Virus record (IMG/VR): IMGVR_UViG_2695420724_000001
Span: 1-7,391 of that record
DNA length: 7,391 nucleotides
Strand: one strand, 5' to 3'
Origin: a virus
Taxonomy: Duplodnaviria > Heunggongvirae > Uroviricota > Caudoviricetes
Made by a program: the position numbers and the translations under genes. The stretch's first letter is position 1. Each line of letters opens with the position of its first letter. Positions 5,219 to 6,170 of this stretch are shown here, piece by piece. Under the pieces are notes generated by a model that was not told the DNA's origin, did no database searches, and saw only the letters and a program-made list of their open reading frames with translations.

Positions 5219-5244
5219 GAGAGTGGATCTTGAACGGAAATTCT

Positions 5245-5286
5245 CAAGACTTGAGTCTTGCATGCAAATCAATTCCTGGATAAACT
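5245..5286 (+). promoter_or_regulatory. candidate promoter for the 173-aa ORF (-35 TTGCAT 5258-5263, 17-bp spacer, -10 TAAACT 5281-5286) overlapped by dyad CAAGAC-TTGA-GTCTTG (5245-5260)
   Basis: Hexamers with 17-bp spacing about 33 bp upstream of ATG 5319. A perfect 6-bp-arm inverted repeat overlaps the -35, and further TCTTGA/TCAAGA copies lie at 5228-5250. Confidence 0.45.
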
Positions 5287-5318
5287 CGATCTGAGTCAAT
5301 AACTTAGAGAGAGAGCAA

Positions 5319-5840
5319 ATGGCAAAGTCAAACGTTAGCGTGCAGGCATTCAAGGACTTCCTTGAAGAGCTTATGTCGCTGAACATAATGAAGGAGGCCA
5401 CCGCTCGAAATTTAAAAAACTCATCCGCTCGCCTCTTAACGGTAGTCCAAGAAGAGGAAATGGGTGATGTTACTCAGCTTGATGTGAATGAGCTTGCCGA
5501 GCGATACATCAACGCAACTGAGCCGAAGCCTAGCGACAGCAGCATTACTGCATATAAAAGCCGCATGGAAAGTGCAATCAAAAAGTTTGTAGCTTTCCAG
5601 TCTGGTGAAGAAATCCCATACACTCCGATTGACAAAGAATCCAGTGAGGAAAAAGATTTGACTGGCGAACCAACAAAAGTCGAAGGCAAGGCTAATGCAC
5701 TTCATACCTATGATCTTCCAGTAGTTCTTCGACCTGAATCAGGGGTTACAGTAACGATTAAAGGCATTCCTAACGATATCACAAACGAAGAAGCCGAACG
5801 CATCTCTTCAATTCTGAAGGTTTACGTTCGGCCTCAATAA
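5319..5840 (+). CDS. hypothetical acidic protein (173 aa) at the rexA/rexB position; no family recognised
   Basis: Clean 522-nt ORF with purine-rich GAGAGAG before the ATG, its own promoter candidate, and terminators on both sides. Glu/Asp-rich central segment. Codon usage unremarkable. Confidence 0.7.
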   Translation: MAKSNVSVQAFKDFLEELMSLNIMKEATARNLKNSSARLLTVVQEEEMGDVTQLDVNELAERYINATEPKPSDSSITAYKSRMESAIKKFVAFQSGEEIPYTPIDKESSEEKDLTGEPTKVEGKANALHTYDLPVVLRPESGVTVTIKGIPNDITNEEAERISSILKVYVRPQ

Positions 5841-6142
5841 TGCAAAAGCATTCAGCACAATGTCCAACTCCCCAGTCCGACATTGATGCTGTTTAACCAG
5901 AGCCTCCAAAAGGAGCCCTTGTTAAGGTACACAATATTTGCGATGTAACCTTAGCGCGTCTGGTACATTTTTTCAAGCGGTTGTAGGGCTGCCGCCAATA
6001 TGAGAAAACACAGATGTCTACATACAATTTGAATGACCAATTCGATCGAGAAGTTCATGTGAATGCCTATGAACGGATAAGGTATGGAAATCTTGAACAT
6101 GTGTGTGAGCATTATCGCTCAAGGCCACACCGCTAATCATCA

Positions 6143-6170
6143 ACCCGGCCTCCATGCCGGGTTTTCTTTT
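6143..6170 (+). terminator. intrinsic terminator (tImm-position) before OL/pL
   Basis: 7-bp stem ACCCGGC/GCCGGGT, 6-nt loop CTCCAT, followed by TTTTCTTTT. Confidence 0.75.

Follow-up and report, generated by a model that had tools for sequence, protein, structure and literature searches.

The 7,391-nucleotide (nt) stretch of viral DNA analysed here (IMG/VR record IMGVR_UViG_2695420724_000001; hereafter the window) is the immunity and early region of the group of Shiga toxin (Stx)-converting phage VT2-Sakai (Sp5), and its positions 4800-6400 are matched at an identity of at least 99% by 44 phage records. Its plus strand corresponds to the leftward direction of lambda. An initial annotation had proposed that the interval between cI and OL/pL, where lambda carries rexAB, holds a self-contained module with its own promoter and terminators, one open reading frame (ORF) and a 300-nt trailer. 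The self-contained, terminator-insulated unit was confirmed, its flanking terminators and promoter being conserved while the flanks differ. Its description as one gene and a trailer was not, having missed the RNA and the mini-protein, two of the three conserved components. We found that positions 5188-6170 form an autonomous, mobile cassette that runs from terminator to terminator with its own predicted sigma-70 promoter, and in which one transcript carries the gene for the protein ECs1184 (component A), a structured RNA of ~155 nt (component R) and the gene for a Cys/His mini-protein of 40 amino acids (aa; component B). The two genes are co-oriented and lie 173 nt apart with the structured RNA between them, and they have one promoter and one final terminator in common. 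The ORF of component A is that known as H0093, VT2-Sap23 or ECs1184, and the depositors of the phage sequence (AP000422) annotated both H0092, which is component B, and the hairpin after it, as a terminator 'for the pRM transcript'. The coordinates of all features are given in Table 1.

Table 1. Features of the cassette, followed by its neighbours, in window positions.
Feature	Position	Strand	Description
Upstream intrinsic terminator	5188..5217	+	GAAAGGUCGCA-GAGG-UGCGGCCUUUU and U-tract
Perfect dyad	5245..5260		CAAGACT-TG-AGTCTTG; candidate operator, right arm supplies TTG of the -35 element
Candidate promoter	5258..5286	+	-35 TTGCAT (5258-5263), 17-nt spacer, -10 TAAACT (5281-5286)
Conserved GATC	5288..5291		Directly 3' of the -10 element; second copy at 5226-5229
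ECs1184 / H0093 / VT2-Sap23	5319..5840	+	173 aa, ATG start
Conserved structured RNA, class A	5841..5996	+	~155 nt; RNAalifold, covariation
Helix P1	5853-5891
Helix P2	5896-5904 with 5956-5964
Inserted hairpin	5904-5915
Helix P3	5921-5931 with 5944-5955
UAGCG	5952-5956		Followed by an A/U-rich stretch, then CAAG at 5974-5977
Helix P4	5977-5983 with 5990-5995
EcOnc20	5976..6101	+	Spans P4, Shine-Dalgarno region and 5' two-thirds of H0092
H0092 mini-protein gene	6014..6136	+	40 aa, MSTYNLNDQFDREVHVNAYERIRYGNLEHVCEHYRSRPHR; ATG at 6014; Shine-Dalgarno-like GAGAAA at 6002-6007, after P4
Downstream intrinsic terminator	6142..6170	+	AACCCGGCC-loop-GCCGGGUU and U-tract; 3' boundary of the cassette, ahead of OL/pL
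P, O, cII, cro		-	In that order
cI	4116/4158-4817
OL/pL	~6300-6380		Followed by nutL and then by N (ends 6842)

The ORF for ECs1184 was as initially predicted, and its product belongs to phrog_2602 (PHROGs, E = 3e-102), a group of unknown function. An exhaustive profile search returned 652 cluster representatives of this family at E <= 1e-3, and among the 150 matches listed nearly all were 160-205 aa long and matched over most of their length. We modelled the protein with AlphaFold (AF2) from 65 diverse sequences (overall predicted local distance difference test, pLDDT, of 89). The model comprises a four-helix domain at residues 8-95 (helices 8-21, 26-40, 56-66 and 73-95), a disordered linker of low model confidence at residues ~98-128, and a beta-beta-alpha module at residues ~129-170. 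The last of these, a beta-hairpin (130-151) and a helix (156-170) with a pLDDT of ~96, bears out the C-terminus that had been expected to be beta-rich, and carries the motif P-x-x-(L/I)-R-P-x-x-G-x-x-(V/I)-x-(I/V)-x-G-(I/L)-P-x-D-(I/L)-T-x-x-E-A-E-R-I. In the close family (A1) the invariant residues include T28-S35 (TARNLKNS), Y79, R82, P134, R138, P151, D153, E158 and A159, while in the diverse alignments only Y79, R82, R138, P151 and E158 are invariant and T28, P134 and A159 are conserved in at least 90% of sequences.

As modelled, the four-helix domain has the core-binding (SAM-like) fold of tyrosine recombinases. ECs1184 has a sub-threshold match to a Pfam integrase SAM-like family, several family members have weak matches to Pfam Phage_int_SAM, and some automated pipelines name members XerC or XerD. 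Identity to known structures of the core-binding domain was 7-16% with Foldseek E > 0.1, and Foldseek comparison with PDB and BFVD returned nothing significant and no analogue for the C-terminal domain. We ruled out that ECs1184 is a tyrosine recombinase, because the linker is followed by the 45-residue beta-beta-alpha unit alone, without the R-K-H-R-H/W-Y catalytic domain; no Phage_integrase match was found in the 65 family members. Searches of NCBIfam, PADLOC and PDB sequences with ECs1184 likewise returned nothing. The statement that the protein matches nothing recognizable therefore holds for curated families (Pfam, NCBIfam and PADLOC, with PHROGs giving a group of unknown function), but not for its fold, which can be recognized, or for its phenotypes, which have been published.

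ECs1184 had also been described as acidic with a Glu/Asp-rich middle, and was proposed, among other roles, as an anti-defence protein or DNA mimic, which would imitate DNA and thereby block nucleic-acid-binding proteins of the host or of rival phages. The acidity is real but mild (pI 4.85; 29 D/E against 21 K/R), and the acidic middle is the linker, which is predicted to be disordered and is acidic only in this clade. As the net charge of the linker is positive in 53 of the 65 family members, the basis for a mimic is removed. Furthermore, the conserved parts of the protein are not acidic surfaces, and mimicry would leave unexplained both the lethality of the deletion reported below and the linked RNA and mini-ORF. 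We rejected this proposal, which we regard as extremely improbable, since the acidity is not conserved.

The supposed trailer of this gene is not an empty 3' untranslated region, but consists of the structured RNA and the 40-aa gene H0092. A non-coding element lies directly 3' of the stop codon of the ECs1184 gene in every homologous locus, and we distinguished two classes of it. In the window's class A (seven distinct copies), RNAalifold gave 44 pairs, 11 of them compensated, with 92% of cells paired as opposed to 28-45% when partners were slid. In class B (18 distinct copies), the helices P1, a long-range P2/P2' and P3 had 94.4% of cells paired (33-46% with slid partners) and 13 pairs with compensatory double changes (1-6 in slid controls), values that were reached in none of 500 shuffles. 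When divergent copies found with a covariance model were added, 26 of 28 pairs were compensated, in an alignment that was itself fitted to that model and so favours the structure somewhat. Class A was analysed separately because the class-B covariance model failed to detect the window's copy. The two classes, obtained independently, have the same architecture, and in both UAGCG lies exactly 16 nt before CAAG. The class-B element includes invariant U-G pairs, which would be A-C on the opposite strand, indicating that the folding strand is that of the gene and that the element is an RNA. No Rfam 15 family matched the structured RNA at E <= 1 in searches of the window and of six further loci.

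Helix P1 is terminator-like in five loci (L040, L077, L247, L249 and L009). The tip of P1 (5864-5879) is a 16-nt sequence, CCAACTCCCCAGTCCG, in the window and in L028, and is the exact reverse complement of the corresponding CGGACTGGGGAGTTGG in L029, L036, L064, L068 and L186. The tip is thus inverted between the arms of the stem, which is preserved, with the loop changed from CCCC to GGGG, in what looks like a template-switch or quasipalindrome event. We also discarded the 'ORFs' running across the stop codon at distant loci, as these are translations of the conserved RNA and not genes.

H0092, the mini-ORF that follows the RNA, belongs to phrog_21154 (E = 2e-8). Its codon changes relative to the L029 copy are six synonymous and two non-synonymous, and the divergent copy in L068 retains EVHVNxYERIRxGNLEHVCEHxRSRPH despite many silent changes, a pattern from which we conclude that H0092 is a genuine coding gene. 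It is missing from RefSeq, which instead has a minus-strand GeneMark ORF, VT2-Sap22 (5951-6112), that runs across the RNA and H0092 and is probably spurious. At other loci the mini-ORF encodes either a CxxC...CxC peptide or a phrog_33859 peptide, and the different types have an (F/Y)-C-R-x-(R/Y) core in common.

The linkage of the three components was strict. The mini-ORF lies at the same distance in 49 of 50 distinct loci, and the trio persists in environmental contigs whose proteins are ~25-30% identical to that of the window. In a search for the RNA that made no use of the protein, by a 15-mer scan filtered with the covariance model, 14 of 40 new loci were true copies, and all 15 RNA copies recovered in this way have the protein gene directly upstream; a gapped DNA pattern scan was too permissive and gave mostly chance matches. 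Alignments A2, A3 and A4 proved too divergent for use in scans for loci, and a genome scan yielded just two species. Within this arrangement, the protein domains, RNA class and mini-ORF type have been shuffled independently, such that L028 and L035 have identical C-terminal domains with different RNA classes and mini-ORFs, and a test for co-variation of the protein domains with either RNA class or mini-ORF type was negative.

The unit is also mobile. It is not confined to the interval between cI and N: clades at 100, 77, 73, 54 and 35% identity occupy that position, two further clades are inserted in the nin region, one (41-46% identity) in the pR orientation and the other (64%) facing the opposite way, and more distant members are found in non-phage DNA. 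The nin-region copy retains the same terminator-to-terminator design. Phages of the 933W type have the DUF3024 region upstream of the cassette in common with the window and lack the cassette itself, the base composition of which has no foreign signature. In complete genomes of E. coli, the cassette was found at an identity of at least 99% in 235 of 5426, mostly O157:H7. In the metagenomic contigs L247 and L248 (~4001-4585), the trio lies between a HicAB pair and a cluster of N6-methyltransferase, Eco57I and helicase genes, a setting like that of a defence island.

Both terminators of the initial annotation (5192-5218 and 6143-6170) were confirmed, with slightly refined limits. The upstream hairpin (-15.9 kcal/mol, z = -3.8) was equalled in stability by none of 200 shuffles, and its sequence GGTCGCAGAGxTGCGGCC-T5 is kept in L028, L029, L034, L039 and L007, with a compensatory T>C change in L039. 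As the DNA 5' of the hairpin in these loci is unrelated, the conservation indicates that the hairpin marks the 5' edge of the transferable unit and not the end of the cI operon, and it insulates the cassette from cI/pRM read-through. The downstream hairpin (-14.3 kcal/mol, z = -3.5) has counterparts after the mini-ORF in L028, L029, L038, L039, L040 and L068, and an equivalent one follows the nin-region copy.

The predicted promoter, from which transcription would start near position 5293, scores 8/12 (TTGCAT-17-TAAACT), which is under the threshold of a generic scan. In ~24 homologous loci with differing spacer sequences, a -35/-10 pair with 17-18 nt between its elements likewise lies at this distance from the start codon; its forms include TTGCGT/TAAACT, TTGCAA/TAGAAT, TTGACT/AAAAAT and (TTGATC or TTGATT)/(TAAACT or TAGACT). 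This recurrence supports the proposal that the module has its own promoter. The dyad that overlaps the -35 element is present, with arms of 7 bp that are longer than first described, and it occurs only once in the window. It is partly conserved in relatives, being identical in L029, AAGACT-T-AGTCTT in L028 and retained at five of six positions in L034, which supports its role as a candidate operator; at the same position L039 has a direct repeat, AGTCTT-TCT-AGTCTT. The 130 nt upstream of the gene in 29 distinct loci are also ~4.5-fold enriched in GATC (58 observed, 13 expected). These Dam sites usually occur as two copies ~18 or 31 nt apart, often within CGATCG or ATCGATCGAT palindromes, and such pairs may represent the half-sites of an operator or a switch that responds to methylation.

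Published experiments show that the cassette is expressed in uninduced lysogens, as had been expected of a module at this position, with protein detected in uninduced cells (PMC7618764) and Hfq-bound RNA mapping to the unit (PMC4104026). In addition, Mondal et al. (2016), who constructed in-frame deletions of Sp5 ORFs in MG1655, could not obtain deletions of ORF23 (ECs1184) or ORF21 (ECs1180), the latter being the only other undeletable ORF of Sp5. They described these deletions as 'apparently lethal', noted no conserved domain, and considered the genes probably needed for stable lysogeny (PMC5155283). In a model built on this interpretation of the phenotype by its authors, ECs1184 would act as a second DNA-binding regulator, derived from a recombinase, which would help to keep the lytic genes of Sp5 off or would counter an inducer, and its loss would cause induction and death. 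The position of the gene adjoining cI and the core-binding-like fold of its product are consistent with such a role in lysogeny maintenance. However, prophages whose cI/cro and replication modules are unrelated carry the same cassette, which is also inserted in both orientations in the nin region and occurs outside phages; the dyad motif is absent from the rest of the window, including pL/OL and pR/OR; and such a role offers no account of the strict linkage to the RNA and the mini-ORF. We therefore consider a lysogeny-maintenance regulator unlikely.

ECs1184 was also detected by Zammit et al. (2025) in the RNA-associated proteome of uninduced enterohaemorrhagic E. coli (EHEC), at a false discovery rate of 0.065 (PMC7618764). 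This nearly significant association would be expected if ECs1184 bound the core of the RNA (UAGYGG, 16 nt and CAAG, in the P2/P3 scaffold) and so controlled processing or translation of the mini-ORF, in the manner of phage and ribosomal-protein autoregulators. Such a translational operator would also suit the strict linkage of protein and RNA while the mini-ORF type varies, and the fact that the RNA ends at the ribosome-binding site of the mini-ORF. In the same study, however, the polynucleotide kinase (PNK) crosslinking signal of ECs1184 was like that of the GFP control and not above it, and the protein was judged 'not a strong RBP' (RNA-binding protein; PMC7618764). As neither protein domain co-varies with RNA class and the predicted fold is that of a DNA-binding domain, we think it distinctly unlikely that the RNA is an operator for ECs1184.

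The Hfq-bound RNA is EcOnc20, an orphan peak in the Hfq crosslinking and analysis of cDNA (CRAC) data of Tree et al. (2014), who placed it at 1,255,628-1,255,753 (-) of O157 Sakai in four of five experiments (PMC4104026 Table S2). With an offset of +142 between genome versions, calibrated by the AsxR sequence and stx2 and in agreement with an ECs1184-to-stx2A distance that is identical in the original phage sequence, EcOnc20 falls on the cassette's strand at the junction of RNA and mini-ORF, which is thus Hfq-bound. The known small RNAs (sRNAs) of Stx phages, AsxR, AgvB and Pas, map elsewhere, near stx2 or Q, and a paper on the PA2/PA8 methyltransferase concerns other genes. We found no follow-up of EcOnc20 in the literature. 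As its 5' edge falls at the foot of P4, EcOnc20 may arise either by processing within the A/U-rich stretch or from an internal start downstream of TGGTACATT (5961-5969). This sequence has the extended -10 form TGn + TACATT and, if RNase processing is not responsible, could be an internal promoter of the mini-ORF; a start ~7 nt downstream of it would coincide with that edge.

These data raise the alternative that the main product of the cassette is EcOnc20 itself, acting in trans as an Hfq-dependent RNA on host or phage mRNAs or sRNAs, released by processing at the A/U-rich stretch or transcribed from the TGnTACATT promoter (5961-5969), with both proteins ancillary. Hfq crosslinking in four of five experiments, the coincidence of the peak's 5' edge (5976) with the base of P4 (5977), the downstream terminator with its U-tail, and the precedent of trans-acting sRNAs from Stx phages are all in keeping with it; binding of Hfq in vivo (5976-6101) and a Rho-independent terminator (6142-6170) are two marks of an Hfq-dependent sRNA, and both are present. 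Nevertheless, no Northern blot or target has been reported for EcOnc20, the peak lies mostly over the conserved coding ORF H0092, the covarying helices P1-P3 are upstream of it, and the sequence in the peak region varies with mini-ORF type. We judge it improbable that the RNA is the main product.

We tentatively interpret the cassette as a toxin-antitoxin (TA)-like addiction or abortive-infection module in which ECs1184 restrains the RNA/mini-protein arm, an interpretation that may well prove wrong. ECs1184 would be the restraining component, most likely a DNA-binding autorepressor at the dyad overlapping its -35 element, and the R-B arm would be the potentially harmful output, kept low through P1 directly after gene A, the structured leader, and Hfq bound where the mini-ORF starts. 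Loss of A alone would leave R-B de-repressed or unbalanced and kill the host, which would account for the failure to delete ECs1184, and the phage would benefit through retention of the prophage, exclusion of other phages, or both. This TA-like logic fits the undeletable gene, the presence of the protein in uninduced cells, and an Hfq peak over P4, the Shine-Dalgarno region and H0092. It also fits the order of a larger protein upstream and a small ORF downstream, the dyad over the -35 element, the terminator-like P1 of some variants, and the shuffling of downstream partners by recombination, as in the mix-and-match of TA systems. An exclusion or abortive-infection role is likewise consistent with the published deletion failure.

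Several observations weigh against a TA-like module. Neither ECs1184 nor the mini-proteins belong to a known toxin, antitoxin or defence family in Pfam, NCBIfam, PADLOC or PHROGs, and the mini-proteins, Cys/His peptides with 40-61 aa, are hydrophilic and only putatively toxic. The absence of co-variation with either domain of ECs1184 leaves a specific neutralizing complex of A and B unsupported. DNA binding by ECs1184 is suggested by its modelled fold, for which the Foldseek support was weak (E > 0.1). The dyad is weak evidence by itself, since at least one dyad with 6-bp arms arises in that 55-nt stretch in ~9% of shuffles, and the long dyad of class-B loci could merely be the upstream terminator. 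Finally, the failure to delete ECs1184 is a negative result, the cause of which was not stated, and its authors themselves proposed that the gene has a role in maintaining lysogeny.

A broader form of the TA-like interpretation is that the trio is a previously unrecognized three-component addiction or defence system of prophages and defence islands across the Proteobacteria, in which the structured RNA, and not a complex between proteins, couples a regulator with a core-binding fold to release of a very small Cys/His effector peptide, and in which the GATC-rich promoter may be a sensor of replication or methylation. We consider this wider proposal doubtful, and put it forward as speculation.

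Among the neighbours of the cassette, a decayed DUF3024 gene (phrog_3467; 4847-5160, plus strand) separates the cI stop codon from the upstream terminator. It is a frameshifted pseudogene, in which a tblastn search with an intact Proteus copy gave matches in two different reading frames, and at the DNA level it is ~80% identical to the region of Stx phages of the 933W type in which the gene is intact. The other undeletable gene, ECs1180 (H0090; 6901-7152, plus strand), lies directly 3' of N and encodes 83 aa assigned to phrog_2471, of unknown function, with no Pfam or NCBIfam match. ECs_5705 of Sakai (~6409-6591, plus strand) overlaps the 5' end of N. Within O, GGGAT/ATCCC-type repeats at 2936-3018, presumably the iterons of the replication origin, are the source of a spurious Rfam snoRNA match, and weak matches to the RpsF leader and snR191, located in the window outside the cassette, were dismissed as noise. 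In the Serratia-type prophage of L039, positions 7354-7408 gave a near-threshold match to the lambda cIII RNA thermometer (RF01804; 49.3 bits, cutoff 50).

In the O157 Sakai outbreak lineage, Sp5 is the Stx2 phage; its ECs1184 has been unexplained since 2016 and EcOnc20 an orphan since 2014. Our analysis unites both of these with H0092 in a single conserved unit, and delineates a protein family of ~650 clusters and a new RNA motif. The undeletable hypothetical gene, the orphan Hfq site and the ORF dropped from RefSeq had each been glimpsed singly; in the databases and literature searched, we found no description of the unit or its RNA motif, of the fold assignment, of the partnership with a mini-protein or of the wide distribution. 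The reason why ECs1184 resists deletion is now directly testable. Should the unit stabilize the Stx prophage or exclude other phages, this would matter for phage therapy and for how toxin genes persist, and if the RNA is the regulatory core of the unit, it would represent a new class of bacterial RNA.

Among the known systems closest to the cassette, EcOnc20, of the same locus and strand, was catalogued as a candidate sRNA without being linked to ECs1184, the upstream RNA structure or H0092. Lambda rexAB, 933W stk and bstA of Salmonella phage BTP1 resemble the cassette in occupying the slot between cI and pL/N, in being expressed from the prophage and in their patchy presence among related phages, but there is no relationship of sequence or family to RexA/B, Stk or BstA, and no RexA or RexB homology was found in Pfam, PHROGs or PADLOC. 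Whereas the Rex operon of lambda is co-transcribed with cI from pRM, the cassette has an upstream terminator and a separate promoter. With its own promoter and terminator, as in classical morons, and with patchy presence and variable insertion sites, the cassette has the properties of a moron, except that its base composition is not atypical, as that of morons is often said to be; unlike the cI-adjacent morons of lambdoid phages, it contains a structured RNA and has copies in the nin region and in non-phage DNA. The weak Pfam likeness of several family members is to the core-binding domain of lambda Int, XerC/D and IntI (PDB 3nrw, 2oxo and 1z1b), and the recombinase-derived regulators MrpR of SPbeta and SroF of phi3T keep the full two-domain recombinase fold, whereas ECs1184 is without the catalytic domain. 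Compared with type II TA operons, the cassette has no homology to TA families, and its genes are not translationally coupled but separated by ~170 nt of conserved RNA. It resembles such operons, and genes of small toxic proteins with structured, Hfq-bound leaders, in being a two-gene unit with an undeletable upstream gene and a candidate operator at its promoter. ECs1184 is like the upstream protein of a TA pair in its putative DNA-binding domain, flexible linker and small C-terminal domain, and the cassette further resembles TA systems in the shuffling of partners, the presumed tight post-transcriptional control of the small ORF, and the location of one distant copy beside HicAB and restriction-modification genes.

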